A program made the translations under genes and the position numbers. From Bilabrum cf. latius (taxonomy: Eukaryota), in the NCBI GenBank assembly GCA_965178125.1, contig OZ237765.1, positions 620,001 to 684,000 on the forward strand: DNA of 64,000 bases, in the 5' to 3' direction. A model generated the notes under the pieces. That model searched no databases and had not been told where the DNA came from. It saw only the letters and a program-made list of their open reading frames with translations. Shown here in pieces: positions 2 to 25,800 of this stretch (position 1 is the first letter of the stretch; every line of letters begins with the position of its first letter).

Positions 2-3000
2 GCGAGCGTTGCTCCTCGTCAAAGAGGGGCTCGTGCTTCAATACGAAGGTCGACAATTTTTGGTGGCCCGAGAAAATCTAGTACGACTACGGCGACGAGT
101 AGTGGTGGTGTCGAGACTCGCAGAAGTTCCCAGTCTCTGAGGGAGTCCAAGTCTTAGCCGACACTAAAACGCCGTGCGTCTGCCGCAGCCCCCAAGAAGT
201 CCATCACTGGGCTTGCAAAAGGAGAGGACAGTCTGCCTGAAAACGTCAAGTGGGAAGCAATGCCAGACGAAATCTACAAACGCTGGAAGCAGAGCCTGTT
301 CCAGCACGTAGTCAGCGCAGCTCTCCGCAAGATGCCTCCGAAACCTGTTGAGCCCTCGAAATGGCTGTTCGAGACCGAAGATTAGTACATGCAACGGCGT
401 CGGAAATTCAAGGAAGCTGCAAGCCGCTATCCAGCCGATTGCAGGCGGCGTATCAAGCAATTGAGCTAGGAAGTGCGGAGAGCCAGCTCCCATGGCATTG
501 GCGCCAAGCGTGATCGCGCTCTGTTCGAAAAGGAGCTGCTTGAGAAGCCCTATGCTACGATTAGTGGTGGCGACTGGATCTACTGGATTGCGAAGACCCT
601 GTGTTGGCGTTGCCACGCAGAGGTTCGCCTCTACGAGAAAGCAATGCAACGAGACGCGGTCCGACGCTGGCTGATGCACGCAAGGATGCAGAAGCGGCAG
701 TCAATGGAGCCAGTTGAGCGGTATGACCCTCTTGAGGTGGTTCAAAAGGCCACGACAGGACCGTCATCGAGCCCGTTGCCGTCATCAAGAACGACAGCAA
801 AGGGAGGCGCTGGCAACACAAAGTCAGGATCCCACAATGATGATGATGGTGATGGTGATGGTGAGGTGATGGAGGCTCCATCAAGGAGGGTCCGGAGGCA
901 TACTCGGCTTTCTCTCTTTGATAACTCAGGACACAGTGACTCCTGGCGGCAGATGGTGCAGAGCGGGCGGCGTTCCATGGCCACAGACCTAGGCATGCCC
1001 GACCAACAGTCTGTCAATGCATCCGAAAGCAAGGTGGAAAGCAAGGGGGCGGGCGGCGACTCGTATTCAAGCTCGAAACCATCCGAACGGTTCATTGACG
1101 AAGCACGTACGCCGTTGGGGTTAGCAGCCTCCGTTCCTGTATGGGTTCCCGACAGTCCTGTGCAGCAAGTGCTCCCCCGAGCCAGGCGCGCGGACTCCAT
1201 CGGCTCGACAACGAGCTTTGACAGCGAGCTCGACATCGATGAGGAGAATTACCCACTATTGGCGCCGTCCATGCGCGATCTTCTGGGTGCAATTGACGAT
1301 GGACTCAACGTTTTTGCCGACTACGACGATGACAAGGGCGCACCCGGCGAGCGCAAAACCGAGGCGGTGAGGCAGGTACCGGCCGTCTAGTACCAGTACG
1401 ACAATCTGCTTAATCGGCTTGAGCTGCTTGCGATTGGAACTGCAGCTATCTCTCTTCTCATGGTGCTCGTGGTGGAGGTGGAAAGGCAGGTGCAGAGCTT
1501 AGAGGCCTATGGCATCGGCATCGGCATTGATACTCCAGCCACCTGGGTCATCATCATCAGCAACATAGGTCTGATCATATTTGCCATTAGCAGCTTCTGG
1601 TAGGAGTTTAGGGGCTTCGTGGCGAGTGCATTGAGTGCAGGAACACTAGCAATGGGTACCGCTGGTTCCAAGCTCGACGGACCGTGCCAGGTGTGCGGGT
1701 CAGTGCTGGGCAATGCAGCTGCAGGGTTTGCGTACATTTTCTGCTGCATCTGCATATGTTCGTCATTCTGCAAGAGCACATTGACCAAGCCACGATTCCA
1801 TGGGGCGAGCCGCCTTGGTCACGGCTATATGTCTAGCGGCCCCACCTTGACTGGGCATCCGGTGGGTCGGGGCACTATCGGCCCCTCCTTGGCTGGGCCC
1901 CCGGTGGGTCGGGGCACTGGTGGCCCTAGGTAGGCTGAGACTCCTGTGAGTTGGGGCACTGGTGGCCCCACCTTGACAGGGCGCCCGGAAGGCCGAGACA
2001 CTGGCGGGCCCGCCTGGACTAGGCGCGCGGTGCGTCGGGACACTGCGGCCCCCACCTTGACTGCGCGCCTAGTAGGCCAAGGCACTGGCGGTCCCACTTG
2101 GACTAGGCGCGCAAGGAGTGTCGGAATGCTGACTTTTGGTTTGAACAACCCAATCCTTGAGGTCCAACAAAGGCAGGGACAGTTTGAACAGGAACAGGGG
2201 TATGCGGAGTAGTTGCAGAAGGAAGACGAGAGACGCTGCGGTCGTACTTCCAGTGAACACGGATCTAGGACTAGGACAGAGGCAACGAGTTTCAATCCTA
2301 TGGGTACTGGTCAGGAGAGAAACGTGACTATGCACGGCGCGTTCACTCGCGTGAGATCCGACGCATGCGTGGAGCGCGGCCGTGAAGCTACCGACGACGA
2401 CGGGTCCCAAGCAGACGAAGAGCCCCACGTCAGCCCTGAGGCTGAGTCCCAAGCAGACGAAGAGCCCCACGTCAGCCCTGAGGCTGAGTCCCAAGCAGAC
2501 GAAGAGCCCCACGTCAGCCCTGAGGCTGAGTCCCCATTGATGGCATTCATGAGCCGAGGCAGGCCCAGCTCACGGGGACTGCAAGGCTCGGACAGCGTCA
2601 GAAGCTTAGGCTAGAGAGCTTCCCCGCGGTTTTATGGGGTCCGTGAGGGCGGTCAACATGGCGGTAGTGATGATGGCAGAGATACTCGCGACGAGACACC
2701 AGTGGTTTCATCCGGGTCGCCTGCTACTACCGCTAAGTCAAGCTCATTGCCAGATCGACCACGGTCACGGACGGGCAAAACGAAGAGGAACAAGACTAGG
2801 ACTAGACGCACCGGGATTGTCACAAAGGCGGAAGGAGACAAGCTTAAGCGAGCTGCAAAAATGCAGAGCATACGCATGAGGTTTGAAACCAAACCAGGAA
2901 AAACTCGCGGTGATACTCCATCCCTGAAGGATCTGAAGGCGGCAAAGAAGAAGCCGGCAAAGAAGAAGCCGGCAAAGAAGAAGCGGGTCGTGCCACGCCA

Positions 3001-3004
3001 GTGA
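2..3004 (+). CDS. 5'-partial membrane protein with low-complexity, repeat-rich C-terminal tail (about 1000 aa visible; TAG read as sense)
   Basis: One frame is open from base 2 to TGA 3002-3004, broken only by TAG at 155, 383, 467, 1388, 1601, 1931, 2210 and 2612. It joins ORFs 473..1390, 1619..1933, 1946..2212, 2213..2614 and 2702..3004. Two hydrophobic segments lie at ~1420-1600 (LELLAIGTAAISLLMVLVV; WVIIISNIGLIIFAISSFW). Confidence 0.75.
1837..2112 (+). repeat. Degenerate ~45-bp coding tandem repeat (GTGGPTLTGRP-like units, about 6 copies)
   Basis: Recurrent ggcactgg(t/c)ggcccca/ccttgact motifs at roughly 45-bp spacing, in frame with the upstream CDS. Confidence 0.7.
2405..2534 (+). repeat. 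Perfect 42-bp coding tandem repeat x3 (SQADEEPHVSPEAE)
   Basis: tcccaagcagacgaagagccccacgtcagccctgaggctgag at 2405, 2447 and 2489. Confidence 0.95.
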
Positions 3005-4099: not shown

Positions 4100-6841
4100 T
4101 CAAGACCTATTCGCCTCCGTTCTAACCAATAGAACTACATCAAAAACGCCAGCGCCGCCTAACTACAACTGCCCGTCGCACGGGACCGCAAAAGACGCAA
4201 AGGACTTGCCTGCCTTATCTTCGAGCTAGTTGACTACAACTGTTAGCGCGTCCACTGCACATCTTGTTCTGTCAAAGAGCAAGCTGCACGAGCACACAGC
4301 GACTTGCTCGCCATCCCGAGGAGCAAGAGTGGCAATACCAGTTGCCGCAGCTTCTGCAGCACCTGCAAGGCCCATACCATCGGCCGCCATGCATGGCTCC
4401 ATTCGGATGCCCACAGCTACCAGTCCTGCACCCCGACGCACTCCTCGCACTGCGACATGCCAATTTGGGGCAGAATCTACTGCGGGGCCCGTGGCCGAGT
4501 ACTGCACCCCCAGACCGGCCTCCCGTACGTCTGCCGGCTCATCGTCAAGCCAATCGGGATCCTGCACAGACAACTTGGACGCAAAGCACAGCTCCGACTC
4601 TGCAAGCGCAGCCCGTGGTAGGCAACCGACGGTAGCCACCACTAAGGGAAGCAAGCCAGCTTCACCAGCCGTACTTTCTGCTGACCAAGCATCGGGCACG
4701 CAGCCGCTCTTGACCCCCTCATCGAAATCCGGTCCGAGTTCCCGAGAGTTCAGGTTCTCGATCAGCGACTCCTACCCAGCAGCAGGGCCGGAAACTATGG
4801 CATCGCTTGCAATAGCTTCGTCCTCTGCCCAACCTGCCCTGTCGGCAGATAGCATACGCACGCCAGCTGCTCGATGTGCCGCCATCGCTGCACTCAGCAC
4901 ACTACCCGATTCATCCAGCTCGCCATCGAATGCCGTACCGTCGCTTCCCTTGTCTCCGGGTCCACAGCCACACATGGCTTGAACCAGAGTCACCAAGTCA
5001 GCGTCTGTCATTATCACTGGAGCACCACCCTTCGCGCCGTCCTCACATGAATCAGGGATACTAGAAGCTAAGCCGCCTGTGGGCATGCTCTTTACACCAG
5101 GTGCGTCACATGTCGCCTTGAACAGGACGCCGCCAAGGAGCAGGTCCAGGGACGAACCCATCGCGTGCAAGACACGCCCGTTGCTGCGCATCAGCAGCTT
5201 GACCTGATCGATGCAGCCGCCACCTACCATCTGCATCGTCTCCGGTACCAGCCCGATCTGGCCCGCGAGCAGCACCGCGCCTCTCGACCTGTTTGCCTGG
5301 GCGTACGGCCCGATGCAGGAGGGTGCCCATCGCGACCATGACCTCACGTGCAGCACCTCCCTCTGCATCTTGTCACCACGTGCCACCGAGGCGCCAGACC
5401 CGGGGTGCACCCTCACCGAGACTGCCACGTCTCCGCTGCCACCCGGCATGCCGCATTGGATGCAGGATCGGGACGGCGGGAATGACCTAAAGTACTTGCA
5501 GTACTCGCTGTTGATGTCCTTGAACCGCGCCATGTCCCGCACCACGAGGCGGACATACACTGCGTCAGCGAGAGCCTGCATGACGTCATCATGACTCAGA
5601 TCGGACGGTGACCCAAGCTCGCTATCACGCCGCTCTGCGTGAATTCTGGCGCCTGCCGCCCGTAGCAGCGCACCGATTTGCTGTGAAGCGGACGGCAATG
5701 CGGATCCGCATTTTCCATCAATCGATCGTCCAGCAGCACCTGCCGCGCTGCCGGTTGCACCGATTCCATTGAAACAGGCCACCACGTGGAACGATGCATC
5801 CTTGCTTGTGCGGGTGCTGACCGATACCTACACGCTATCCGCGGCATCGCGTGACGCTGAGCAGGAGGGGGTTGCGGCGGCAGCCACTTCCTCCGCGGAC
5901 TCGGGGCTTGCCGCAGCTGATGCTGCAGAAGAAGGAGGACCGGACGGTGTGGAGGAGGCGGCACCACAACCTGTTGCTGGCCCGCTGGCTCCGACGGCCT
6001 TACTCTCCATCGGCAGCCCCAGTGGTGTCAGGGGCTCGCCCCCAGGCACGCTGACTGCTCTAGCCTCTAGGATGGCCATGTGCGAGTCGGGCGCGAACTC
6101 GTCCTTGCTCCGGTCGATTCTCTCGTGCCTCACAAACTCAACGCGCCCCCGCTTGAACAGGCCGGGGCAGTACCTGCAGAATGTCTCGTACTCGCCCCCT
6201 TCACCGCACGGGTTGAGTCCGAATGAGCCCTCCCCTTCCAGCAGGTGCTCGGCCATGCCTGCGATCGACTGGCCGACATGGGAGGGCTTCAGGCCGTACG
6301 ATGCCACCTTGATGAGGACTGCGTCCAGGCCGCTTGTAATCATGTCGCGAAGCAGCGGGGGCTGTCGTCGCCTCCACATGTACCCGAGGGATACCATCCC
6401 AAGCCGGCTGCAAACGTTTTCAACGCGTGTCCGCTGGTAGCTGCTCAGGATTGCTCCTGACGATACAGCCTGTGCTTCCGGAAACATACGTTTGCACTCT
6501 CTAAGAAGCTCGAACATGTCCTCAACTTCGTCCTCCTTTGCTCCAGCACCGGTTGCCGAAGAACTGGCTGCATCATACTGGACACCCGTGGACACGGCTT
6601 TCCCTTGTGTTGGCCGGCGAACCAATGGTACACCGATTGCTGCACCTAGTGCCTCGATTGCGGTGTGTCCCACGGTCTAAAACATGTAGCTATCCAGCTC
6701 TTGGATTGTGGCACCAGAATCCTCTCCATCGATTGGAGGGTGCAAGTTTGCAATACACACAACATGGTGCCCCAACCGCTGACATTCTAGCAAATTATAG
6801 ATGCTATCTTTGCCACCACTTACAAGTCCGATCACCTGCAT
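4100..6841 (-). CDS. DPH6: Diphthine--ammonia ligase (diphthamide synthetase) with C-terminal RidA/YjgF-like domains, ~913 aa
   Basis: Runs from ATG 6841 (MQVIGLVSGGKDS, PP-loop) to TGA 4102-4100 in one frame, with TAG at 6677, 5828, 4772, 4226 and 4163. Motifs: ELDSYMF*TVGH, SSGAILSSYQRTRVENVCSRLG, PCGEGGEYET, and the RidA-like LHVRSWSRWAPSCIGPYAQA...AGQIGLVP. Confidence 0.95.
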
Positions 6842-6930: not shown

Positions 6931-7991
6931 ATGCAGGATAGATTTCGGTCGAAAACAGATGCGTCGGTATGTTTCATCATATACCTAGCCTTGCTAGCCA
7001 TAGATTGGCGTCTCTATTCTAATTCGGGCATGATTTCAATTACTTGGTACAAATTTTCGCTTGAGTTGATGTATCGCAGCTAACGTACTATAGAATGCCA
7101 GGAAATGACCTCATCAAGTATATGACAGGTGCATGGAAGAGGAATCTTGTCTGGAGATAGTTCGGAGGCAATTTTGACCTCATGAGTAGCGCTTCTACTC
7201 ATATCGTGGTTGAGCCAGTGCAACTGAAAGGGGGAGGAGCATCTCAAACAATGCAATGGTACTTCGGACCGAGCTTGCATGCAGATGAATTGCGATAGGG
7301 CATTCTGGTAAAGGTGCAGTCTGATGATAGCGACCAGCAGCTGTTGCAGGTCTGGCACCGGTCCTAGCAGGGTCTAGGTCATTTCCATGCGCAGTACGCG
7401 GTAATGGTTTTCAACTTACAGATGGACGACGGTGTTGTTGTGACAACCTGTCGTGCCATTGACGAGGACACGATGGCGGTGTGCACGGTCGACGTGAATG
7501 CTAGCCAAGCGCCCCACGTCATGTACGGCAACATGTTTCGAATCAAGCCCGAGGTGTACAGGGCGCTGACTGAGGAAGTAACCGCGCCTGCCCTCGAGGA
7601 TGGGGGAATAGGAGGGAGCGAGCCATCGGCAGGAGTAGGGGCTGCATCCTCCCGGGACGTGGACTCAAACTGGGTAGGAGGGCCCATGGAGCAGGCAGGG
7701 GCTGCCAGTGGCTTGGGCATGGGGGCGGGCAAGTCATTAGCGGGGCCGTCACCTTCGGAACAAGAAGAGGAAGAAGCAGCGGGAGCAACCGGTGATCCAG
7801 CTGCAGAGGCTGGTATTGCTGCACGGGGAGGAGCGTCGAATGAAGGCGAAGCGCTGGTCGCAGCAGCTGACTCGGCCAGCCGGGAAGGAGATATAAATGC
7901 TGGCGGAGCAGAAAAGGACAGAACAGTTGCAACAGAGGAAACCAAGGAACAAGGCGCCACTGAAGATGACAAATCCACCGAGGATGACTAA
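6931..7991 (+). CDS. Hypothetical protein, join(6931..6966,7080..7991), with acidic C-terminal tail
   Basis: ATG 6931, then a phase-0 GTATGT...CGCAG intron (6967-7079). The frame is then open to TAA 7989-7991 with TAG at 7158, 7296 and 7365. The globular-looking part reads GAWKRNLVWR*FGGNF...RAIDEDTMAVCTVDV...YGNMFRI. Confidence 0.7.
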
Positions 7992-8173: not shown

Positions 8174-11100
8174 TCACCCTAAAGGCGCCACCTTTGCCTT
8201 GTTTCCTCCTCCCACGTTGACGTCGGTCTGCGCCCCGCTCTGCATTTCTCGCGTTGCTTCCTTGATCGCTGCCTGCAGAGCCAAGTGATTTAGAAGCAAG
8301 GACTCGGGAAGAAGCACCAACATCTGCCTCGCCGACATCAGAGGCAGCTAAAGCAGTTTCAGCTACGAAATGTAGACCAGGGTCGCGACCGCAAACAGAC
8401 CCACGAACACCCACGTCGCGATCTCGATGTTGCGTCCAGTGTCGTGGAGCCTGGCCATCATGCTGAGGTAGAACCGGGCGATGGTGACGTCAAGGGAGTG
8501 CTGCACGTAGGGTGACATCATGTCCCTGAGCTTGTCGGCCTCGTACAGGGCGTACTCAGCGATGGACAGACTCGACACAGTGCGGTTCAGTCCAACAAGC
8601 TGATCTGTTGATTGTGTTGTCAAGCCGGTTGTACTGGTCTGAAGCCTCCTCACGCTGCTTCCGGCCCCATGATAACCAGATTCATACATCGGTTTGCTCT
8701 TCGGGGCTCGCAGCCTCGAGGTACGGGCGCGGAGAAACCGAGGTGTGTTGAGGTCTGTCTCGCCCAGCACGTCCTGCACCTACCCGCCGCCCGTGATGTT
8801 GCTATACACGCGGGCAGCAAAGTCTCTCGCCTCGAATGACCACGAAGCCACGGCTGACACGAGACCCTCGGCGATGATGCCATCTTGCAGGGAGCGACAG
8901 TCCTCAATCACGGGCTGCACTAGCCGAGGGTCGGATGGAGGAGGGCGCAGGTCTTGATTTTGGCTCTGCTGCACGATGGCATCCACACTGACAGACAGGT
9001 ACTGCATTGGTATGCAGCCATCTCGATTAAGCACGTTGTATACCTCCTTCTCTGTAGTATCACGGCCGTCGTCCCGGATGCCACCCGCCTGAGTATGCCT
9101 GAGCGGTGTCTCGTACAGCCTGTCGCCCTTCTCGCCGTCTGCGAAGATTAGCATGTCCGCGCTGGCCTCTGCTCCCGTTGCTAGCATCGAGCTAAGCTGC
9201 TCGATGATTCGAGTCAGGGTGGCAATCTTGGACGCCCGGTGCTCAATGCTGGCCTTCCGTGATGTCTGGTTGGCAGTCGGGTCATGGTAGTACGCGTATA
9301 GATCTTCTGCCATTGCCTAAGCATTCGTGGACAGCAGCTGGGATCTGGCCTGGATGGATTGAGTAACGACTGCTCGCTTGGTGAGCGTGCCTATATCGTA
9401 GCCCAGGCTGGTCTGAATAAGCAAAAGAGCCCCGGCAAAGACGAGAATGGTGGAAACTGGGAGCAGCAGGCAAGCAATGGACCGGCATACGAAGGTAGAC
9501 GAGTTCGAATGGCTGCGCATGTGCTCCCGCGCATCCGTTAGCGTTCGCTGCTGGACCTCGTAACGTGACTGACGCTTCTACCTTAGAGCTGAAGATCGGC
9601 TAGGGGAAGCGCTCGAGATAGCAGAACCACGCCTTCCTCCGAGCTACAAGGCGTCATCATTGTTGGCAGTCGCAGTGGCAGCAGAGTTCGGTGCTTCTAA
9701 GCCGTATCCGTGACCACTTGGTATGATGGACACACGGCCGCGCTGGGGGCTGTCGCTGCTGTCGCTATCAGACTCCGCGTTCTCATCCTCCCAAAGCTCC
9801 TCCTCTAGATCGCTGTCTTGCATGCTGCTGTCGCTCCCTAGCACTGATTCGCTTTCGCTGAGCACCTTCTCGAGGCTCTTCTGCGAGTACTGCGCCAGCC
9901 GCTTGGCGTGGGTCTGCGAGATCAGCATGAAGATACGCAGCACCTGGTCTGTCTTCTCGCCCAGCTGACGAAGCAAGATCACGAACGACGACCCGCCCAA
10001 GATCAGCATCACGCCAGTGGTCACCGCCCCAAACAGAAGCACCTGAATGCCATACTGCTCAATGTTGGTCTCGAGCCGAACCTTGTGCCTCCGGGTGGCA
10101 TACGACATCATCAGATCCACCTCCTCGGCGTTCTGCACCACGAATTGCACGTCCCGGATGGACCGCGATACGGCGTCAGTCGCCCCTTTGCCCACTCTGC
10201 GGAGGGCTGCCACGAGGTCACGCAGCTGCTCTTCGACTGTCTTGAACTGGGTGCCACCTCCGGACAGGCCGGGTAGCTTGATGGGCAGCTCTCTGGTGAT
10301 CTCGAATGTGTCGTAGATGCCGGCCTCCTGGATCGCCTCTTGCAGCCTGCCGTGAGTGTCCTGCACCTCGTCGGCATCCAGCAGCATCAGGTGCTGCAAC
10401 GCAACTGGATCGTGAATCTCCTGCCTGTGCACCAGAGACATGTTGAAATTGGTCAGCTGTCGCGCTGGACTTGAACCTTGTCTGTGCATCTGGTTGGGGT
10501 AGTCAGGGTACACAACCTGTCCATTCATCACCACCTCGTACGGTGATACAAGGTCGATGTCATTCCGGTTCGCACTCCACACGAGCTTGTTCTCAGCACT
10601 GAGAAAGGCTAGCTGCCGGCGGCCCGCAAGCCAGACGGTGTTGGACATCTCTTGCAGCACGTGAACGAAGTTGCGGGTCCAAAGCGTCACCAGCACGCCC
10701 ATGACGAGCACCACGAGGGCCTGCACCCCGAGAAAGCGGTTTGAGATCCGGATCTGGGACTCGGTGGTGCTGGCCGCCATCTGGGCCGCAGTACCGAGTG
10801 CGCTACGACCAGCAATCGAGGACGTGCTATACTCCGAAGGCACCGAACCGGTGCCAGCTGCGTACGCGCCGGCCCTGTCTCCGTTGCTACCTCTGCCCTG
10901 CTTGACGGAAGCAATCTGAAGAGAAGTAGAATGGCGGCGCCCTGCAAGGCTTGCACCCCCGCTAATTCGTTTGGCTTCTCTACTCCCCCCTCTGTCAGAT
11001 CGCCCCGCACTACCGCGTCGTACCGCCCACCTCGCAGATGGCCCTGGTGTTGCAACGTATGCACCGGTCTCGAAAGTGATGCTTCTGCCAGCCTCAGATA

Positions 11101-14100
11101 GCAGCTGACTGGCCGAAGTCTCGTCTGCGCTGCCATTGGATGGCTCCAGCGCCATGTTGTTGGTGCTGGAAGATATGGGTCTCTTTCGTGACAGCTCCGA
11201 TGGTGGCATGGACTGCACTACGCTGGTGGGGTCTGCTCCAAAAGCAGATGAAGCCGGCCTGTTCCTAGGCGTTGACGCTTCGCTGCCTGCCTTGCCCCCC
11301 GAGTCTACATGGCCTTTTGGCGACTTCTCATGCTTGGCTGGCACGTCCTATTCGGCCTGGGCCTAATGTAGAGCATACGCTGGAGAAGACACGGTGCTTC
11401 TTAAGCTAGCAATGTGTCTCCAGGCCAAAACGTGCAGGCGACCGTGCTCTGGGATGGCGGCCACTTGCACGTGCCCCAGGACCACCACATCGCCCTGCGA
11501 TCCGCGCACTGGGATAAGCCCAACCTGGTGCAAATTCCGCATTGAATCAATATGTACCCGGTTTGCAAGCTCGCCGGACGTCGCTTCCGCTACTGCCGCA
11601 TGCCTGCTTCTGCTTCTCTTGACCGCGTGTCTGGGCTCTCCGCCAAGACCACTGCCGTTTGAGCTAGAGGCACTGCCGGGCCTTTTATGCAGATGCTTTG
11701 TAGAGCCTGCCTCTACAGCTGGACCTCCTGCACTTTCTGAGTGGCCATGTGCCCCGGAGGCGTCGTTCCTCGTGCCTTCACCTGCCCTGCCTTCTTCCTC
11801 GTCGTTCCTATGTCTGGTCCCGGTCCTGATCCTGTGCAGTCCGAGGCACTGGTACACATCGGACACGCCCGGCGTCGCAGCGATAGACTTGATTTGCTCC
11901 GTGCTCAGCTCTCGTTCTTCTTGGAACGATGCCTCCACGGATGGGAAGAACTGCGCCATGCTGATCACATCTGACTCTAGGTCTTCCGCATCCAGCCCAA
12001 GCAGCCGCAAGGAACCAGCCGATGCGGAATAGATCTGGAAGTTCTGCTGCGATCCACCGAAAAGCAAAAAGTTCTGCTCTGTCGCAATCTCGGATATTTC
12101 CGCGGTGAAGCGAGGCTCGGCCGTGACCTGATCCGGAGGTGCCTCGCTCACGGCCAGCCATATAGGCATGATGGCCCCTCCACGCCTACGCCCAAACAAC
12201 ATTCTGCTTTGACCAACTACCCTGCTTTTTTTGTTTTTCCTCTAAAATGCCCGCAGTAGCTTGTCGTGGACAGCGTCGATCGGGCTGGGGATGATCGTGC
12301 TGACGTTTTGTCCCACCAGCTGGTGGTGGGCGCACTGAAAAAGACGGCACGATGACTAGGAGGCATGGATAATCTCTCCCATGTTGGATGGCTTACCCGA
12401 GATGGTAATCGTGGCAGCAGATTCGTCGAATGAGGGCCTGTCCTGCTGCACCGCCCCGAAGCGCACGGATACGACTCGCTTGGACCTCTGCTTGCGAGCC
12501 TGCTCTTGCACGCGCTGGGCCTGATTGTGCAGCTCGTTGACTCTGGGCTAGTCTGCCCTGAAGTCAGACAGGTAGCTCGCGTACTGGTGCAGCAGCACCG
12601 CGTTGTCACGCTGGAAGCTGAAGAGCCGGCGATAGGCGCTATCCGTTCGCTCGATCGTGTCATGCAGCGTTACGCTCGTGTCCATCAGGTTTGCCAAGTC
12701 GGGGCTGTCCACGGTGAGCTGGGTAAACAGACGGACCAGCAGTCGGTACGCCACGACTCGCAGCTGGGCAGTCTCGCGGAGGGCAGAGTCGAACAGCACG
12801 CGGTCGAAAGAGCTGAGCCCGACTCCTTCCGTTTCCCGCATGTCCCTCACTCGCTGGGCGATGTAGTACCTCGAGTCGAGAGCGGGGGAGCACTTGAGCG
12901 CCTGCGACAGTGCAATGCACTCCCTGTACCGATACCGGCTGGTGGTCCGCTCGAAGATAGACAGCCCGATGAAGGCCTGCTCGTTGGTGGAGAACGTCTC
13001 CGCCGCGCCCTCGTACGCCCTGCGCGCCTCGTCTTCCAGGAGCTGTATCTCGGCCTTGAGTTGCTCAGCGGATAGGTGCTCGGCGTTCTGCAGGTGCACG
13101 CCACGGTAGTCTGCGCTGCCGATCATGGATCGAATCTGCGCTCTCCTCGCCGCCTGGCCAGTCGGCTGCCCCAGGGATTGCGCGGGCACGCTCTGACCGA
13201 CTGCGGGAGCGGGAGCGATGTCAGCTGACGCATCTTTGCTGCTTGAGCCTGTACCAAAATCACGAAAACTGCCCTAATGAGCAACCCTGCGCCTCCCAGA
13301 CATGCCTGGATCATTCAACTGACTGTCGACTTCGTTCGAACTCCAACGCGTGCGCGCTGCAGAGATGGTGTCCAGCCCTGCCTCCTCGCGCTCGCTCGTT
13401 GCTGAGGATCTCTCAGATACGGCTCGTTCCAGCATCTGCTTCAGGATGGCCCGCCGCTGCAGCCGCCGCCTTCCCCACAGGTGCATATCGCTCACCGAAG
13501 TGCACTTCTGCAGGGGCTGCTGACCCACTGCACTTAGCCGGCGACTGACCACGCTGAAGATCAGCAGCGCAGTGACAGGAACTCCGTACAGCACGCCCAT
13601 CGTGGCTGCCTCTGTGCTGGCGTACTGTGCCACGAGGAGGCTGGCCGCGGCAGTGGCGAATGCAGCCCCCGATGCAGCGAAGAACGCGTTGACGTCGCGG
13701 TGCGTGTAGGGTGCCCAGGTCGAGAACTGGTACACCTTGGCAATGCCAATGAACAGGAGCAGGAGGGTGAATCCCGTCGTGCCAACCACGAGGTCACCAA
13801 TGATGGCGTACGTGAACGAAAGCCCCAGCTTGAGCGCTACGTTGAGTACTGCAGCCCGTCCGGTGCTGATGGCCCCCCACGCCTGTGAATCCGGGCGGCG
13901 ATCGACGAAGATGGCCGCCACAAAGAGTGACAGAGCACTGAAGCCCAATATGAGTACAGAGAAAATTGTAGATAGTACCATGTGCGCCGGCGAGCCGCAC
14001 TCTATCGAAGTACGTAACCAGCTCTCGCTGTCGTCAGGACAGCTTGCCCCCCGCAGTAGAAATCCAGCCACGGGCAGGAATAGTACCCCTGTTGACGCCG

Positions 14101-14527
14101 AAGCTATCAATCGAAGCGAGTGGATGAGAAATGGAGTCTATGGAAGATCTAAAACAAAGTTCCGCGCAGCGTATACTGCCAGCCCGAGAAATCCGGCTAC
14201 GAACGACGCTGCGACTGACAACACCACGAGGTAGGCAGTTGGGTTCGTTTGGGGATCAAACGGCTGGCTGAGAAAACTAATGCTCGCAACAATAGGAGCG
14301 AATAGTCTGGTCTCTGTCCAAGGCAGCAAGGGAGAGTCGTTCATTACGAACGACAACGTCTGAGCTTCGGAAATGAATGCCATCATGGCGTACAGCCACC
14401 GAGAGTCGTCTTGAAGCTCCCGGCTAAACGTGAAGCCAAGTCCAAAGAGACCTTGCAGTGCGGCGTGGTACATGCGCTCTAGCACTGATTTTTCCGCGTC
14501 ATCGTGTCTGAGCTGATGCGATGTCAT
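8174..14527 (-). CDS. PAS-domain multi-pass membrane protein, TmcB/TmcC-like, ~2117 aa, single exon
   Basis: Runs from ATG 14527 to TGA 8176-8174 in one frame with 13 TAGs (14138, 13274, 12548, 12356, 12242, 11363, 11348, 9644, 9578, 9317, 8780, 8363, 8348). It has an N-terminal multi-TM block, a helical region (LLHQYASYLSD), a PAS domain (GEIIHAS*SSCRLFQCAHHQLVGQNVSTIIPSPIDAVHDKLL) and further TM pairs. It ends with RQMLVLLP, a motif I associate with this protist family. Confidence 0.85.
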
Positions 14528-14962: not shown

Positions 14963-17900
14963 TTATCGGGAAGCACCGGCCGGCGAGCCTCCCCCATCCA
15001 TGGCAGCTTGTGACTTCTTCTTGCGCGCCAGTAGCCGCGCAGCCCCAGTCAACCGCCTGGAGGGGGAGGCCTTGGCCGGCGAGGGCGACCCCGAAGCCGC
15101 AACACGACCCGCTGGAGACTGCTTCGACTTGCTTGGATCTCCCAGCCTGCTCTTGAGCACAGCCGCTGCCTCGGCCGCGAGACCCCTCTGCAGATTGGCA
15201 CCTCGGCCGCCGCTGCTGCTACTGCCCCCGAGCCCTCGCTTGATCGTGCCCCCGAACAGCTTTCCTCTCACCGTGCGCCGGCTGCGAGGAGGAGTCGGCT
15301 TCCTTCCGCCCGGGGTCGGGGGCGACACCCCGTTGCTACTGCCTGCCCTGGCGGCAGCCTGCAGCTCCCCTTTCTGCAGACGGATGGTCAGCTGCCTGCG
15401 GGCCGCGTCCACACCGCGCCTGAGCTCCTCTGCCATCCCCCTGCCCCTACCTCCTGCACCGACCTTGCCGCGGCCGCGCGGCCTGGGCGCCGGAGGGGAG
15501 CCGAGCTGGGGCGCGGGTGGCGTGGCGGTTCCGCTGGGCTCGCTGCCGCGGCGCCCCACGGCTTTCCGTGCACTGCCTGCAGCGGCGACACCCGGGGACA
15601 AACCCAGTGCGGGCGACTCTAGAGATCCATCGTCGTCGTCGCCACCGTTGCCATGCATGGCAACCTGCGCCCCGAACGCATCCTCGTCTGCAACAGATTG
15701 CGCGTGCAGTGTCAGTTTCTGCCGCAGCGTGCCCGAGGCAGCGAGCCGCTTGGCTCTATCCTGCCTCTTCTTCTTGCCCGCTCGTAGAGCCTTGGCTCGC
15801 TTCCGCGCTTTAGCTGCGGATGCGTCAACTTTTGTGCCCTTCGCAGCAGACCCGGGATTCCCTCCGGATGATGCAGCTGCAGCGGCTTCCGCCGCCTTTT
15901 TCCGCTTCTTCATCTCCCGCTCTCTTGCGCTTGCCAGCTCCTGTCCGAAACTCGCCAGCATCCGCACTGCAGCAAGGGGGTCTCTTTCCAGCGTCTTGTC
16001 GGCGAATCGAGAGCTGAGCGCCTTGAGGGCCTCCAGCGCCTCGTCCAGCGAACCCTTGACCCCGGCAAGAGCCTTCTCGGCAGCCTCAATGAACGGGATG
16101 CCTGCGGTCTTCAGGCGGTCGGCCGGGCGAGGGGGCCCATCCACTGCCCCGCCTTGATCCGCCTCATCCTCCTCCTTCGCACCCCCGATCCCACCCCTGG
16201 CAGCGCTTGCCTTCCGCACAGCCCCCGCAACTCCCCTGACGTCGCCCTCGAGCTGCTGCATGACTGCCTCCAAATCGTCCAGGTGGATCCGGGACGCCTC
16301 CACCACCACCTCAAGATCTTCCGGCAGTGCGATGCACCCTGCAGCTTGGAGTAGCTCGCCCCCGGGGGACACGAGGATGGCCTGCTCCTGCGCGCCTTGC
16401 GCCGGAGGAGGTTTTGACCCTTCCGGCAGCATGCCCGTTGCTGGGCTTGCGCTCGCCCGGGCGATCACATCTAACACGGACACCTTGGCACCGTCCAGTC
16501 CACCCGTGGTTTTCGTCGACCTGAGTTTCTCCAGTGCTCCTAGCTTGAAACCGCGGGCCTGTCCGCGGGAGGTACCTGCGTTCATCCTGTTGCCCGCGAA
16601 GAGGACCAGCCTCAGGACGGCAGGCAGCGACTTGCTGAGCCGGATGGCCCGCGCAGCCGCAGCCAGGGTGTCGACCTGTTCCCGCAGAGGAGCCAGCACC
16701 GGGTCTGCGTCGCCGCTCGGTGGCTCGGGGAGGCTGTCTGGCGGCAGGTCCGCCGACAGTCTGCGGGCTAGCTGCATCAGCTGCACCCGCTTGTGCGCTT
16801 GGGGCACTGACATGGTTTCCACCACGAATCGCTCCACCTCTCCTAGTCGAGTGGGATGGTGTTCCGGGCCCCCCTGTCCCAACCACTCCGTCACCTGCTC
16901 CTGCTCTTCCAGCGTTCCCAGCAAGGGGCCCAGCAGTTCCAGCTGCTCGTCCGATATACCCTGGCACTGCAGCAACCTATCCCTAGCCTGAATCGGTGTC
17001 AGCTTCAGTCGATGCAGAGCGATCTTTGCGTTCTGCTGCCTCTGCTGCGAGAACAGCGTCACCTTCTCGACTTTGGCGGCGCTGGAGCGCGAGCTGACGG
17101 ACGCGGCATCCGAGCCCGCGCCGCTGGCGGCACCCGACGGCGTTGCCTTGCTCCCGGGTGTCTTCACCTTTTTCGCGGCACTTGCTTTCTTCTTGAAGGC
17201 CTCGTCAAACCATTGCACGGGCAGCTCGTCACCTTTTTCCTGAATCTCCGGCCAGATGCTGCCCTCCGCCACGGCTTGCCTGTCGGTGATTTTCATCCAG
17301 TGGAATGGCTACATCTTGTGGGCGGGCTTGGGCTTGGGTGCGGCCTTCGGGGCGATTTTCCCGGCGGCTCCGGGGCGCGCACCACCACCGCCTCGGGGTC
17401 CTGGCCTGGCGCCCCCGGGGCCTGGCCGCGCCCTGGGTCCTGGGCGAGCAGCTCCCGGCCCGGGTCTCGGGCGAGGCCCCGGTCGGCTAGCCCCTGGTCC
17501 AGGCCTCCCGCCACGTGGTCCCGGCCTGCTAGCTCCTGGTCCTGGGCGAGCTCGGGGTCCAGGTCTCCCGGCTCCAGGCCCCGGTCGGGCCGTGCCAGGG
17601 CCAGGCCGAGCGGTGGGCCGCGGCCTTCCCGGCCTGCCCGGGCCTGCTGCTCCTGGACCAGGCCTAGGTCTGGGTCGAGCAGGTCCTGGCAGCACCGCAG
17701 CACTTGGGGTGCCTCCGGTAGCGGAAGCGGCTGCGGTGTTGTGGTTGGCAGCCTGCTGTGCCTGTTCCCTGGCTTCATCCCGCTCCTTTCTGGCCTAGAT
17801 GGCGGCTTTCTTGGCCGACTCCGCGGCTGCCTCCGCCTCTGCCAGCTCTGCTTGCACCTGCTCCGTCCGCTTGGCTAGCCGCTTGGCTTCCTGTAGCTGC

Positions 17901-19459
17901 TCCCTAAGCGATTCCAGCTCTGTGCGCGCCTGCGATAAAGCAGTGGCGTCGTTACTTGTTGCAACACCAGCCTTTGACGGCACGACACTCGTAGAAGTTG
18001 TGCTAGCACCGCCATTGGCTGCAGCCCGCCTGAGCGAAGCGTTCTCTTCCTGCAACCGTCGGATCGCAGAGAGTTCGTCCAAAGAAACCGATGGGATCGA
18101 GCCGTCCTCCTCCTCCAAATCACCACCCAACTAGCCGCTCCCACCAATACCGCCGTCGCTGCTGCTGCTGGAAGATGCCCCGCCAGCCCCCATGACAGCG
18201 CCGTGCACAGCCTTTTGGACGCCCCCCCACAGCCTTTCGCTCACCTGGCCCTGGCCCCTTGGGATGGCCATGAGCAGGTGCAGCACGCTCAGCAACCGCT
18301 GGATCTGCTTACACTCCGCCGCACCGCTGAGAACCTACGTGAAGGCAGCCTGCGGTGAGCCCGCCTCCCGTCCCGCTGATCGCATGACCTCCTGCTGATC
18401 CCTTGCCCTGGCTCTGTCGAAGGCCTCTGTCTGCTCCACGACCTGAGCAAGGGCGGAGGAGAGATCGCCGGCGCTTCCATGCCCCTCCTCGTCGTCTCCA
18501 TCGTCTTCGCCCTCCCATTCAACGCTACCCGCCGCTGAGCCAGCCCCGTCGTCATCCCCATCCTCGTCTATCTCCCCCAGCACGGCCAATGCCAGGTCCG
18601 CCCCTTCCACCAGGCCTTCCTGCGCGGCCCGGATGCCCGCCAGGTCCAGCTGGGAGCGTACCTCCACCCGGTCCTGCAGCCCGTGGGGAGCCGCGCGCAC
18701 CAGCGTGTAAACGAGGGAGAACACGGCGGCGCGGGCTCGCCAGTGTGACGAGTGAGACAGCTGCCACTCCTTGGCGGCCGCTTCGAGGTCCCGGGACCGA
18801 TACCCGGTGGGCACGCGCCCGTCGGCGATCTCTTTCGTTTCATCCATTTCGCGCCTGGGCACTGCCATGGCTCGGATGAGAGAGGCCAGCGGCGCTCTGG
18901 ATGCAGGATCAGATGTGAGGGCTGGGGCAGCAGCCGGCGGGGTCGCTCGACCTGCAGCTGATTCGTCGCTCTCGCTGTCGGAGTCCTGTTCCTTGGCGGC
19001 GCCGCGGAGACCCATTCGTGCAAGCAAGGCATCTGCTGCGGCCTCATCATCGTCTTCTTCTTCTTGGTCTGCCCCCGTGTCAGCCTCGGCAAGCGCCTCG
19101 AGACCGAGCAGCGCGTGCGAGTGGAACCCCGGCATAGCCGCCACAACGCCCACAGCGTCCGCGCCTAGTCTCCTAACGTTCGCGTTGGGAGATCGGAGAC
19201 ACAGGGCAAAGGCGTCCACTGCATCTTGGCAGTCGGCCATAGCGACCAACGCCTCCTGGCTGCGATCGCTTGCCTGCCTAAGGCCTCGCAAGAACGAAAT
19301 CACGGCGCTCTGCTCGTCAAGAATGGTGGATCCCGCTGCAAGCTACAAATCAACGGAAGCAGCGCTGATAACCACACTCGCGTTGTCCGGCGCCGTGGCC
19401 AATTTTTCTGTGCAGTCGTTCAGTCGTTGAGCTACGGCTGCACTGGCATGAGATACCAT
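14963..19459 (-). CDS. Formin (N-terminal helical/FH3-like region, coiled coil, Pro/Gly/Arg-rich FH1-position segment, FH2), ~1498 aa
   Basis: Runs from ATG 19459 to TAA 14965-14963 with TAG at 19343, 18335, 18131, 17795 and 17309. FH2 motifs: KM*PFHWMKI...SIW, QRQQNAKIAL, LVLFAGNRMNAGTSRGQARGFKLGALEKLRSTKT. Confidence 0.92.
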
Positions 19460-19870
19460 AGCTGGACTACGTAGTCCCGTACGGGCCTCTCAGCGTGCTT
19501 AAACCTATTCAAATAGTATCCAATACAATAGACTACAATTGTCACAACAATAAACGAGAAATACGAGGTAGTTTCCCCTTGGCCAATTTTTCTGTGTAGT
19601 TGCGTGCACTTAGGTGCCGACAAATCTTGAGCAACCCAATTCATCCATAACAACGGCCCCACAAATAGATAAAAGGTTCAGTATGGACCCCTTGGGCCTT
19701 CAATAGGATAGTAGACTAGTTAGAGGTGGCATTCTTGACGAGGTGAGCAACAAAACAGCGTTTGTGGACCACTGGACGGCAGTGCTAATCTGCTAGTTCG
19801 ATGCTGCACTCCACAGGCTCTTCCGACTAACCGACTCGCATTCACTATTGCAACTCTGTATCATAGAGAA

Positions 19871-22800
19871 ATGCATGACCGTCTCAGTTGCGTCCCTGCA
19901 CAGTGCTTGAATTCATCGCCGCAGGTGCTGGGCATTCTGAATGGGTCTAGGACCATTGCACCTCAGCAAGCAAAAGTTGGAGGATCAAACGATGCAGGAA
20001 GTACTGCAGTAGGACGCCTTCCTACGTCTAGTTCGCATCCCGATTCCTTGGCCACTATGGGAAGCGGGGGTAGCGACCGCCGCGGCGATGCTACCTCCGC
20101 ACGAGCGAGCAGGGCAGAGGGGCAGCCAGTCGCCATGGGGTCGTTTCGCAGGCCAGTTCTCTCCGCTGCATCTCATGGCTCTGCCGGATCAGGAAGCGCC
20201 GGCCTAGTAGCTGCCTCGATGGGTCGAGCAGGTGCTCGCTCCGTCGGATTGCTCACCCCGTCTGCCTCCGCCGGGCTGCCTGACAGCTCTGCGTATGGAT
20301 CCGAGGTAGACCCTGACATGACGGCGATACAGGCTGCGGCTGGCGCTGGAATTGTGGCCGGCTCAATGGGCGATGGAGAGCAGTTGCGACCGGGCAGCGC
20401 ACAGGAACATAGCCGCCGAGGTTTGGGTGCCGCGCAGCAAGGCAGTGCACCCAGGCTGCCGTCCCCACCGCCCCGGCACTCGTCATTTCGGGGTGACAGC
20501 ACATCCAACGCGGGCACGCATGTGCGCAACCGGTCTCAATCCATTCAACTAGGAGCCAGCGGTGGTCTGTGCGGAAGCGCTGCAAGCAGCCCCGCCGGTG
20601 CCAGGGGGTTACAACCGCTACAGGGACGGGGATAGACACGAGCTGGCGATCCCAGCAACGCTCACCGCAGGGAGCACAGCGCTGGCGGCACCCTTGACGC
20701 GCAATCCCCCGCGGGTGGGTCAGCAGGCCGAGCGAGGCCGCGCGCCAGCACCGACACGCCCTAGGGACTCGGAATGGTAAGACCGTTTCCGGCGTCCGGC
20801 AGAAGCTCCGCAAATGCGCGGCGCCTCCCGGCACAGTCGCCCCCTGTTCTTGCCGGCTCAGTCGCGGTAGGAAACAGCGTCCAAGGGAGGCGAGCCACGG
20901 CAGCTCTCGTGCCTGGCATGGGCGGAGGACCGCTGGAATCGTCGGGGTAGCACCCCTCGGGCACCGGTTCCCAGCAGCAATCGATGCAGCGGAAGTCCGT
21001 CCAGCTTGAAGGGAGGTACATGGGGTCCTCGACGAGGAGCCTGGCCATGGGTCGAGGGGGCGGGGGGCGTGAAGGGAGGGCGGGAAGCGGCAGTGGTAGC
21101 GGCAGCAGCGGGCACGGCGTGGGCAGCCTGGGTGCTGGCGGCGCCGCGCAATCCCGGGGAGGTTCCGCGAGGCGAAGGGGCGTGCTGCCTATCGTGCCGT
21201 TACGAGAGATCGCCGCGCTCTCGACGATGCATCGCATGGTGGCGCGGCTGGACCGCAGCAGCAGCAAGGAGGAGGACCAGGACTAGGGCTAGCATGGAGG
21301 CTCTGGTTCCGGTGCAGGACGCGAGCTCATCACACGGCCCGGTGACCCCAGCCCGGATGCGGCGCGGCGCCACGCACTGAGTCTGTGGGCCCGCGGGTGT
21401 GTGGCTCGCGCCGGGATCAGCCGAGTCCCATCGCTGGATGTGGAGGGCATGCCTAGGATCGGACCAGTGGAGTCCTGGCAGCTCGCGATGGGAGCCGTGC
21501 CTAGCGTTCCGACGGGGGAGCAAGGGGAAGCGGGGGCGGTCGCCCGAGGATCGGATTAGTCCAGCGGTGAATCCGATGTAGGACCTCGCTTGGACACCCG
21601 CCCTCCCATCACGGACATCGTCCTGATTCCTGCAGGGCCGGGGGCCGGCCACGCGCATCGCCGTGGAGTGGCAGGCGCGGGCGCTCCAGCTGGAGGTGAA
21701 GGCACCGCAGAAAGCATGGCTGGCGGCGTGGACGAGGTGGTTGCGTGGGGGATTGTGGCGGTCGGCAGCGATGCCGTCGTCGCTGACCTGTCGCTAGGCG
21801 GCAGTGCAGATCCTGAGAAGACCCGCGGCGGTCGCCGGAGTCATGCCACCTCAAACAGCCACTCTTCTCTGCTGCTTGGCATATGCAGGGATTGGACGAG
21901 GCCGCCCGTGACCGGAATCGCGCTGCTGGATCTTGACGCCGGCGATTTCATGCCTCCTGGGTTCGAGGCGGTGTGCGCCCTCGGGTCGGGCACACCGGTC
22001 GTGGTTGGTGGGGCCGGAACCGTCACGGGTAGCAGCACAAGCGGTCACCGCCAGGGTGCAAGGGGCAGACGGGCCAGTCAATCCGCTGGGGAACAAGGAG
22101 GCAGACCGCTGTACCTCTGCAAGGTGCACGGGAACGGGGCTCCTCTCATGGACGTCGGGGTGCTCATGGTGGGGACGCACCACCCCATGGTGGACAGTGC
22201 CGCGGTTGCTTCAAGCGAGGCGCTGCCGCCCTGCGTGCGGCACATACCCGAGTCCTACCTGCCCTATCGGGCACCCCGCTCGAGCAGCAGCAGCGGCGCG
22301 GGGCCGGACGGAGCGCGGCCCAGCCAGGTGGAGCTGCCCTCTGGATGGGCCATGCTGGGGTCAACCTACACAGGTGCTGCGGCGCAGCTGGTCAGCGGAA
22401 CCGGGGATGCGCGGCGGCGCGCCTACCTGTGCTACCGCAAGGACCTTTCGCATGTCAGGAGCCTGGCGCTCCGCAGCTCACAGGATGCAGCGCACGATAG
22501 TGCAAGCGCCGCGACGGCGTCCAGGGGCGGGAAGCGAGCCGAGCGGTTGGGCGGGGCCAGGGCCATGTGGCTGGCCGGTGCATCCGCGCCCAGGATTCTC
22601 ACTTGCTTCCGAACGGATCCAGTGTCTGCCAGCGCAACCGTTCTATCCTGTCCCTGCAGCGCAGCAGACGGGCCTGGTGCAGCTGCGCGGCTGGCTACCC
22701 CGAAGTCGACCGTGACCACGCCCACGGCTGGCAGTGCGCTCACGGGCGCGACGCCAGGGATCGGGCTGGGGTTAGGGACCGCACCCACAGAGTTCAACTC

Positions 22801-25800
22801 GGCGCCCGGCACCATGCCCGCTGATCGTGCTCGTGTGACGAGTGAAGCTGGCCCGCACCGAACCTCGTCTGATGGAGCATCGCCAGCCAGTGCGGCGGCA
22901 GCATCTCCAGGGCAGGCACAGCCCGGGTCTCTGCTCGGAGGCAGGGGCATGGGCCGCACGCCTAGGAGCGGATCGGACGATGCGGCGGCGGGGCGGTCTA
23001 GAAGGGCCCTTGAGGTTCATGAAGGTTCGCTCGAAGCAATCATGGAGAGCCCCCCCCGCAGGCATGGCTCTTCGTCTGACGCACGCAATGCTGCAGGAGG
23101 AAGCAGCACGACCCTAGAGAACCTGGCACAGTCTGAGGCTACGGATTCCACAGCAGGTGCGTCTGGTGGCCTGCACGCAGCGGTCAGACCTACATTGGCA
23201 GGCCCGATGCAAGGGCAAGAGTTGGGCACGGATGGGACGGAGCTGGTTCGGCCCGGCAGCACTTCCGCGGGAAGCACGGGCTCCAGCCCTCCTCCAAGCC
23301 CTCCCCCCAGCGGTAGGGAACAAGAGCATCAGGGAACGCCGCCTAGGGATGATTCGTCGGATCCCCCTTCCATCGATCGGGGACGCAGCTCGCCTTCCAT
23401 CGGCCCTGCCATTCGTCATGCGCCGGAAGCCTCACCCTACAGGCGCCGGCTAGGCACACGCGTGGGTGAGGGGCTGGGCATCGAGGGGTTCGGAATCGGG
23501 GGAACTGGAGCCAGCGGCAACCGTGCTGCTGGGGGCGTGTATACAGCCGGGAATGGTGCCACCGGGTCCGCAGCAGTGGTACAGTTCAATCCGGGAAGCA
23601 GCCCCTCTGGCGCTCACGGCTCCACGGTGAGCATGTGGGTCCCCGGGAGTCGGATGGGGCAAGACAGAGAGGCTGGTGCCAGCCCCGTTTCCTCGACCGA
23701 CATGCGGGACGGAAGCTTGGACCACAGCCGCATCTAGAGCGGAAGCAGGGCGAGGGCGGAGACGGGCAGCTCTGCAGGCAGCGGGGGCTAGTCCAGCGGT
23801 CTTGCACTGTAGGACGAGCAAGACCCTCGGTTCACCGTGCCGCCCGCCTCTGAATTGCCTCACCAGCGGCTGCCAGCTCACTCCATCGGCTCCCAGAGCA
23901 GCGGGACCAGCATCGGCACGAAGACCAAGAGCTCCCCGCAGATGGGCCAGCCGAGACCACTACCTCCTGGGGCTGGGCCTGTCGCGCATGCTCATCTGCG
24001 CGTTGCAACGAATTTCGACGGAGGGGCAGCCACCAGCCCCCTGCCTTCTACTTCCTCCGGGCCTGGTTTACGCGGCTCTCCTGCCAGCAACGCAGGAGGC
24101 GCGTTCAGGCCGAGGCTAGAGTCGGTCGGGTCTGCAACCTCGAGTGGTCGTGGGGGCACTGGCACTGGCACTGTCTCAGGGCCAGGGGCTGCCGATGCAC
24201 TTGCTGCGGCAAACCGTCTGCTGGCGAGTGCGTCGGTGCGGTTTCGGTCGCACACTGGCGGCAGCTCTGCCATTGAGGGCGACGTGCACCACGATGACAT
24301 CGACCCAGCCGTGGCAGCAGCAGTTGGCCTCACCCCGGAGGACGAGGGTCCTGACGATCTTGCGTTTGGTGGCAATGGGGCCGTCGAGGACGGAGCAGGA
24401 GGGCACCGAGTGCTCCGTGGCGGCCCACGCCGCAGGGTGTCCATCGGAAGGCAGCTATCCTCCGGCGTAGGCGTGGATGCGAAAGGCGCCAAGGTCCCCC
24501 GTAGGGACGCAGCGGGGCAGCTCTTGGCACGATGGAGGTGGCTGTGGCACGGCTGGCAAGGTGGGTACGGAGGCGTCAGCACGCGCGCGCTGGCACTATG
24601 CGAATCGGCGGCGGTACTCCCCGGCGACGCGATGCCCCTCCTACCCTCTGCCGCAACCGCTCGATTCGCACCTTTGTTACTAGGTTTGTACTCTGGCGAT
24701 TTTCGTGCGGTGCGAGCGTGCATTGAGTCGATCTAGAGTGCCATTAACAGTGGTAGCGGGCAAGCGGCCGGCTAGCTGTCAAGAAGCATGAGCTCGCTCG
24801 TGCATAGAGCGCTGCAAGGATCCAGCGGGGGCCGTGCTGGGACATCTGGTCAGCAACCAGGGAGTTTCACATCCTACCGGAATCGTACTAGCGGATCGGT
24901 GCGGTATGACTGGATGTATGGTGGACCGGATGCGCAGTCCATCCACGGGACGCTAGGCGTGGTCGATGTCACGATTGCTTGCTTGCTCGACGCGGTAACG
25001 CCATCCCTGTGCGACCTGGCCGTGCCTGCGATGGGTCTCGCTGTGGCTGCAGTGCACGCCGGTGACGCTGTGGTGGGCTGGGGCCTGTCCCAATCGAGTT
25101 CCGGCGGCTGGTGGGCGGCCCGCACCGTCACGCTAGGCAACAACGAGTCGGCACGAGCTGGCCCCAGATCGTCGCGAGGCCTAGAAGGCACTATGACTCG
25201 CGCTGGCACAAGCCCAGCTGTTTTCGGAAGCAGCGCCCAGGGAGCCGGCACTCTGCATCGGCACAGCACGCAGGTGCTTCCCAGCGGCATACGGATGCGC
25301 GGGCCCGGCATGCACCCGCACACTCTGTACAGGTGCTTGTCCCTGTCCCTTATGGCAGTGACCACCCTCGCCCACAGGGAGGCCATGATACGCGTGGCTG
25401 CAGACTGGGCACGGTCATTGGGTGCCAAGGGCATCGCAAGGAGCGCAGACATGCAGCTGAGGCAGCTCCGTGCGAGGGACCAGCTCAGGGCAGCGACCAG
25501 GGCTTTCCGCAGGTTCAGCTGCGCGGTGGTCAAGGCGGCGGGGGAGGCCGTGGTCGCAGCATGCAGGAGCGGGCCTGTCTTTGTCGCGGATGATTTGCTT
25601 GCTGATCCAGAGGATGCAGCGAGCAGCAAAGCGGCTGAGGGCGACATTGGAGGAAGGCCGGGCTCGGTCTAGAGCGGGGGCAGCGGAAGCGATGGCAATG
25701 CGTACGAGGAGGCAGAGACTGCTGGAAGAGTACGCTTCGCCCCCAGCACCCCGTCTGGTATTGCTCCTGGCCAGGGCGATGACTAGCCTGAACATGGAGC

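Follow-up and report, generated by a model that had tools for sequence, protein, structure and literature searches.

When stop codons are reassigned, UAA and UAG almost always shift meaning together, and the UAR = Gln code (ciliate-type, table 6), in which UAG means Gln as here but UAA does too, is also found in ulvophytes, hexamitids, oxymonads and aphelids. NCBI table 15 likewise reads TAG as Gln, an assignment shared by crAss-like phages that recode amber, although in a setting of bacterial RF1/RF2 as opposed to the eRF1 that operates here. Lineages in which UAG alone has changed are few. In the passages of McGowan et al. 2024 (PMC11687900) that deal with them, they are exLh, Iotanema, Scotinosphaera, Protocruzia and five phyllopharyngean ciliates, with no stramenopile among them, and the codon table itself is therefore already known. 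Some of these uncouple UAG from UAA as here but give it another meaning: UAG is Leu in the rhizarian exLh and the TARA phyllopharyngean ciliates and Ser in Scotinosphaera, and the two codons are likewise uncoupled in the ciliate PL0344, where UAA is Lys and UAG is Glu according to the relevant part of PMC10553269. As far as the consulted sections of these reports go, the known CUA tRNAs of UAG = Leu, Ser or Glu systems are nearest to the tRNAs of the encoded amino acid.

The very same table (UAG = Gln, UAA a stop) is described for the fornicate Iotanema spirale, a member of an unrelated supergroup, in the parts of Panek et al. 2017 (PMC5304391) devoted to its code; its eRF1 N-domain is altered too, its dominant stop is UAA, and its CUA tRNA was predicted to be a mutated tRNA-Gln(CUG). 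UAG alone has also become Gln, with no sign of a dual meaning, in the ciliates Hartmannula sinica, Trochilia petrani and Protocruzia tuzeti, where UAA makes up 87-98% of stops; a suppressor tRNA went undetected in H. sinica and T. petrani (PMC11687900, passages on these species).

The stretch of DNA analysed here (the window, 64,000 nucleotides, G000:C31:620001-684000 of a 48.6-Mb, 111-contig assembly) comes from a nuclear genome in which, judging from sequence comparisons, UAG very probably means Gln while UAA and UGA are the stops. Unlike in Iotanema and the three ciliates, the stop mostly used is UGA. A CUA tRNA was found here, and it is Tyr-like; unlike the UAG = Gln ciliates, the genome is GC-rich (55-68% in the window) and has TTAGGG-type telomeres, seen at 3/4 contig starts inspected.

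The Dph6 gene and its TAG codons

The codon that drew attention to the window lies in a gene for Dph6 (diphthine-ammonia ligase) on the minus strand (4100..6841), which reads as a 913-aa frame with five TAG codons, needs no intron and ends with TGA (4100..4102). The frame matches PF01902 (E 3e-25) and PF01042 (E 6e-11), and it has the features of eukaryotic Dph6, that is, the PF01902 domain, the SGGKDS and GEGGEYET motifs and a fused C-terminal RidA-like domain, an architecture that is the same in the homologues returned. The preliminary description, which had called the enzyme otherwise intact, thus holds once TAG is read through. It had quoted a 36-mer encoding ELDSYMF(TAG)TVGH, which is indeed found on the minus strand, occupying 6665-6700; its coordinates, 6662-6697, were three bases (one codon) too low, and that span reads LDSYMF*TVGHT. 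With the ATG at 6841 as the first codon, the TAG (6677..6679) is codon 55, and the frame stays open from there to the TGA.

That this residue should be Gln was the central claim of the same description, and it stands: in a MAFFT alignment of the best 120 of 1394 homologue matches, spanning fungi, animals, plants, oomycetes, Cafeteria and discobans, the column is Q in 120/120. Flanking columns are almost as constant or equally so (D50 and S51 in 120 each, T56 in 108, V57 in 117 and G58 in 118 of the 120). PF01902 had been proposed as the arbiter, and here the outcome is split, since the model alone does not separate the candidates (97.0 bits with Y, 96.4 with Q, 96.2 with E and 95.2 with L at the site) while the column of eukaryotic homologues does. 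In two archaeal-type PDB homologues the residue is His which, together with the indiscriminate model, confines the invariance of Gln to the eukaryotic Dph6 family. The alignment thus supports the reading of codon 55 as the invariant Gln of an ELDSxMxQTVG motif in an intact gene. The deposited Dph6 of Cafeteria is a full-length protein of 895 aa, which is consistent with a standard code in that organism.

The other four TAG codons are uninformative for residue identity: codon 338 (5828..5830, minus strand) falls in an unconserved linker, codon 690 (4772..4774, minus strand) in an unconserved region, and codons 872 and 893 (within 4163..4228, minus strand) outside the coverage of the homologue alignment. 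By itself, the Dph6 site would have been insufficient evidence for TAG = Gln, because TAG also occurs elsewhere at conserved Leu, Pro and His columns: one in eRF1 (L in 111/112 homologues) and two in Prp8 (P in 118/119, H in 118/120). These can be argued to be substitutions to Gln, which is one base away in each case.

TAG in the window and across the genome

All nine long genes of the window, which are non-overlapping and fill most of it, contain in-frame TAG (80 after the first ATGs), and their terminal stops are TGA in eight and TAA in one. At the low-coordinate end of the window is a long plus-strand frame with no Pfam match (2..3004; seven TAG downstream of its first ATG and a terminal TGA), and between these two convergent genes sits a short element (3660-3995) with many contig matches, high depth and loose ends, which is probably a dispersed repeat. 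Head to head with Dph6, across a gap of 254 bases, is a divergent frame of 298 aa with no Pfam match (7095..7991, plus strand), with three TAG and a terminal TAA. Two minus-strand genes follow, one TmcB-like (8174..14527; 2117 aa, 13 TAG, ends TGA) and one for a formin with an FH2 domain (14963..19459; 1498 aa, five TAG, ends TAA). On the plus strand are then a Sec7/ACBP gene (19739..32977; a 4412-aa frame with 22 TAG), a DUF3591 gene with a TAF1-like product (37199..43516; 2105 aa, nine TAG), a gene for a predicted surface protein with no Pfam match (43975..48615; 1546 aa, six TAG) and one for an M8 (leishmanolysin-family) peptidase with EGF repeats (52690..58254; six TAG in frame), and an ankyrin-repeat gene on the minus strand (59044..63999; nine TAG in frame) closes the window; these last five all end with TGA. 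The longest ORF of the window is 792 aa under the standard code, 807 aa when TAA is read, 981 aa when TGA is read and 4412 aa when TAG is read. On other contigs, reading through TAG gave the longest ORF in 16/19 evenly chosen 10-kb stretches. In 38 long ORFs, TAG represents 312 of 2762 Gln-family codons (11.3%).

Dynein heavy chains allow the meaning of TAG to be read from many sites at once. For this, 38 stretches covering 19 loci were translated with every stop codon, of whichever kind, replaced by X and aligned to 150 external dyneins, a column being taken as conserved at 80% or more. Well-aligned TAG sites numbered 63, and the 27 in conserved columns faced Gln (22), Glu (4) or Val (1), with none at any conserved Trp, Ser, Lys, His or Asp column; TAA and TGA occurred at no aligned site of this stop-masked alignment, and in 28 dynein search matches the internal stops were exclusively TAG. 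The profile log-likelihood for TAG was +77.0 for Q, -16.4 for E and -59.2 for K (a Q-E gap of 93), and the same method gave back the standard residue for 61/61 sense codons. TAG is also found in frame in Prp8 and eRF1 outside the window, as it is in the dyneins, and at position 48 of eRF1 it occupies a column that is Q in 110/112 homologues. TAG is thereby shown to be a sense codon genome-wide that behaves in alignments like CAA/CAG.

As for termination, a C-terminus was considered fixed by homology when at least three full-length homologues agreed, for which 13 of the 19 dynein loci qualified, and in 13/13 the stop sits exactly there, being TGA in ten, TAA in three and TAG in none. Prp8 and Dph6 end with TGA, which is the dominant stop of this genome, and UAA is also a stop since eRF1, the formin and three dyneins end with it. 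A UAR = Gln code (table 6) was considered and rejected, ORF lengths, dynein sites and gene ends all speaking against TAA being read as Gln.

The code is probably not confined to this one genome. In the eRF1 fragment of a metagenomic relative (L114), which shares 81.6% nucleotide and 92% protein identity with ours and differs by 99 synonymous changes over 236 codons, a TAG stands where the present genome has CAG (Gln), and the gene ends with TGA where ours ends with TAA. This exchange, on the basis of a single codon, suggests that the code is common to at least two diverged organisms.

Decoding machinery and rival readings of UAG

An Rfam search retrieved one tRNA gene whose anticodon is CUA, present in a single copy and flanked by genes that carry TAG (G000:C23:907607-907679; 69.8 bits on RF00005, clean cloverleaf). 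A pattern scan yielded no tRNA with a UUA anticodon, only the CUA gene being genuine among nine CUA/UUA matches; since such patterns miss intron-bearing or atypical genes and 63/780 tRNA candidates were scored, another UAG decoder could be hidden. A second 'cta' call by ARAGORN (L227, relaxed threshold) is spurious, as it needs a 12-nt intron. A tRNA-Gln-like pattern with CTA had zero matches, and the motif of the CUA tRNA is absent from viral contigs. This tRNA quite likely decodes UAG and, owing to C34 in its anticodon, would leave UAA alone.

When it is set against 24 further nuclear tRNAs arm by arm, the CUA tRNA shares 20/24 bases of its acceptor and anticodon stems with tRNA-Tyr(GUA), a level reached by 0/267 pairs of tRNAs for different amino acids, as against 12/24 for Gln(CUG), and neither tRNA-Gln exceeds 12/24. 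Two other ancestors fit poorly, namely tRNA-Trp(CCA), with 10/24 stem bases, and tRNA-Gln, the origin predicted by Panek et al. for Iotanema. Over all four stems the match with Tyr is 29/42, which 4/267 unrelated pairs attain, and a pattern search of the nuclear tRNAs gave no convincing tRNA-His, which leaves descent from tRNA-Tyr likely but short of demonstrated. Between themselves the two tRNA-Gln isoacceptors differ greatly (9/24 stem bases shared), tRNA-Gln(CUG) has an A-A mismatch in its acceptor stem, and tRNA-Tyr has no intron.

Escherichia coli tyrosine suppressors with G73 insert Gln. The CUA tRNA has G73 too, against A in tRNA-Tyr, and its D stem is identical to that of Gln(UUG) at 8/8 positions (7/8 for Glu). 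In the sections of Giege and Eriani (PMC9976931) on these two systems, the eukaryotic Tyr determinants are A73 and C1-G72, bacterial Gln determinants include G73, G2-C71, G10, U35 and A37, those of eukaryotic Gln are blank in the review table, and amber suppressors of other tRNAs are said to accept Gln in E. coli. The CUA tRNA carries all five of these bacterial Gln elements, lacks G36 and retains C1-G72. The genome encodes a GlnRS (L109) whose N-terminal domain is the eukaryotic one, and this cytosolic enzyme would charge the CUA tRNA, aided by U35, G73, G2-C71 and the Gln-type D arm. Descent from tRNA-Tyr(GUA) and not from tRNA-Gln, through a change of G34 to C and identity changes, is the slightly favoured origin; the amber suppressor so derived would have switched identity by A73 becoming G73, a new G2-C71 pair and a Gln-type D arm.

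One eRF1 was found (L001), with three GT-AG introns; two further loci (L002/L003) look like pelota. Compared to 112 homologues, this eRF1 retains GTS, E55, NIKS and YxCxxxF. It departs from them in four places, with ARGN instead of TKAD ahead of GTS, a Val replacing the Ser of TASNIKS, a His replacing a Lys in the loop of YxCxxxF, and a TAG (Gln) at the position of human Leu69 (numbering by offset). The changes thus lie beside GTS and at Leu69, unlike the T32G of Iotanema (eRF1 part of PMC5304391), which is within the GTS that is intact here. The same part of that paper places L69A in exLh eRF1, the very position altered here, and Panek et al. cite raised UAG read-through for that mutant. It is reasonable to suppose, with rather less assurance than for the tRNA, that N-domain changes including Leu69 to Gln and those preceding GTS caused this eRF1 to lose UAG recognition. 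Two unrelated eRF1 (L170, L174), which have in-frame TAA and TAG and on sequence grounds belong to a UAR-reassigned code, have Gln at the Leu69 position as well.

Could the Dph6 TAG never be translated, being an artefact, part of a pseudogene, edited in RNA or the end of an intron terminating in TTTTAG? This hexamer does look like a 3' splice site, and introns do occur in the genome, be it the three in eRF1 or those of canonical GT..AG type at the 5' ends of two window genes on the plus strand (6965-7079 and 19740-19923). An intron at this position was the alternative raised in the preliminary description, and it fails, since the invariant D50-S51 would be lost with every candidate ending at the TAG, save one of an implausible 7 nt. 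At 6677-6679 no alternative base is listed in contigs of four read runs, which come from four studies, and one contig of run X5 covers 3371-6830 free of mismatches, gaps and joints; among the contigs listed, none of X7 or X6 bridges the TAG. One intron each is skipped in contigs of X7 and X5 (that of X5 being 19740-19923), and none at the TAG. These skips hint at spliced RNA in both runs and at the survival of the Dph6 TAG in mRNA; none of the runs is on record as RNA, and the continuity of the X5 contig is therefore a hint, short of proof. An artefact would also have to accommodate 80 TAG in nine genes, with no TAA or TGA inside conserved blocks, and a tRNA with the matching anticodon, which makes this whole class of explanation exceedingly improbable.

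Equally improbable is that UAG means Leu, as in exLh and the TARA ciliates, or yet another residue. Leu is suggested by the TAG at Leu69 of eRF1, but this position is itself altered in exLh (PMC5304391, eRF1 part) and is Q in the UAR-reading L170/L174; TAG is found at 0/1855 conserved dynein Leu columns (counts not de-duplicated), which largely refutes it, and the CUA tRNA has a variable loop of 5 nt as opposed to the long arm of tRNA-Leu. More serious, yet still improbable, is ambiguous decoding, in which UAG would be mostly Gln with some Glu (or Tyr) because a mosaic CUA tRNA is seen by more than one synthetase. TAG is in excess at Glu columns (4/27 versus 14/383 for CAA/CAG, Fisher p = 0.024), the anticodon loop of the tRNA is one base from that of tRNA-Glu(CUC), its D stem is close to Glu, as noted above, and its acceptor stem equals that of Tyr at 12/14 positions. 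However, CAG too replaces Glu at such columns (14 cases), GAG becomes TAG by one mutation, so that new Glu-to-Gln substitutions would be expected to be TAG-rich, TAG is at 0/483 conserved Tyr columns (again not de-duplicated) and the invariant Gln of Dph6 tolerates it. Finally, since eRF1 keeps GTS, E55, NIKS and YxCxxxF, some recognition of UAG as a stop could remain, giving a context-dependent codon, which is improbable. No sign of such a dual meaning was seen in a small sample of gene ends (13 dyneins, eRF1, Prp8 and Dph6), none of the dynein ends being TAG. Within the final 50 codons of the 38 long ORFs, TAG is no scarcer than elsewhere (6/65 versus 241/2082).

The host and the significance of the code

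The host, a single-celled, marine-type eukaryote, is in all likelihood a stramenopile and probably a bicosoecid, going by gene trees that are quick, bootstrap-free, supported by SH-aLRT only, rooted for drawing and built on subsets of 113, 43 and 38 rows, with the query a long branch in all three. In the Prp8 tree (38 rows) it is on the oomycete/ochrophyte side of a split (SH-aLRT 100), outside the oomycete and ochrophyte groups; in the eRF1 tree it is in a nine-row group with Bicosoecida sp. CB-2014 (SH-aLRT 99), and in the Dph6 tree in a 12-row group with Cafeteria roenbergensis (SH-aLRT 91), loosely with the Cafeteria clade and outside it, each group having one named member. Eight best matches of the dyneins were looked up, and all five with a taxon name were oomycete. 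Prp8 itself (L058) has a long low-complexity N-terminal extension, an insertion of ~130 residues and substitutions at near-invariant positions.

Contig C12, which uses the TAG code, carries a tandem array (C12:942000-1030000; L035, L036) of short (1700 nt), highly divergent 18S genes, with ten near-identical copies or part-copies. They do not match the FISH probes of Cafeteria burkhardae, Caecitellus, MAST-4 or MAST-7, those of Cafeteria and Caecitellus being mismatched at 6 and 7 of 18 bases. A second, different 18S (1802 nt), which we take to be dinoflagellate-like, is on C95, an 18-kb low-complexity contig (L034, L061, L062), and probably belongs to a co-assembled second organism. The mitochondrial contig (C111, L053-L056; 38.4 kb, 24% GC) reads UGA as Trp (code 4) with a UCA tRNA, the code also given for Cafileria mitochondria in the corresponding part of PMC6723347. 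It encodes an atp1-like gene, very long rps3/rps4-like ORFs, several unknown ORFs and only 11 tRNAs (ARAGORN), nearly all genes being on one strand.

Searches of open-access literature showed no nuclear code variant in a stramenopile, and term look-ups in PMC11412368, PMC10120064, PMC12574857 and 10.64898/2026.07.28.741278 returned none. As far as this literature shows, what is new is (i) a stramenopile host for UAG = Gln, (ii) the combination of UAG = Gln with UGA as main stop and a GC-rich genome and (iii) a CUA tRNA that has been identified and whose nearest match is a tRNA other than tRNA-Gln; the depositors of the assembly may already have noted the code. Taken as a whole, an undescribed stramenopile code (UAG = Gln, UAA/UGA stop) in at least two related species, served by an identity-switched CUA tRNA derived from tRNA-Tyr(GUA), is a tentative proposal, with chances slightly below even.

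The value of this genome is that the assembly of 48.6 Mb is largely telomere-capped and holds the tRNA, eRF1 and GlnRS genes, which earlier cases of UAG = Gln lack, and that it offers a way to test where the UAG-decoding tRNA came from and by which eRF1 residues UAG is told apart from UAA. Annotation with the standard code cuts short the majority of the long genes in this lineage, and that would hide the lineage in protein databases. If its tRNA did arise as proposed, a natural switch of tRNA identity would underlie the reassignment of a stop codon in a eukaryote.
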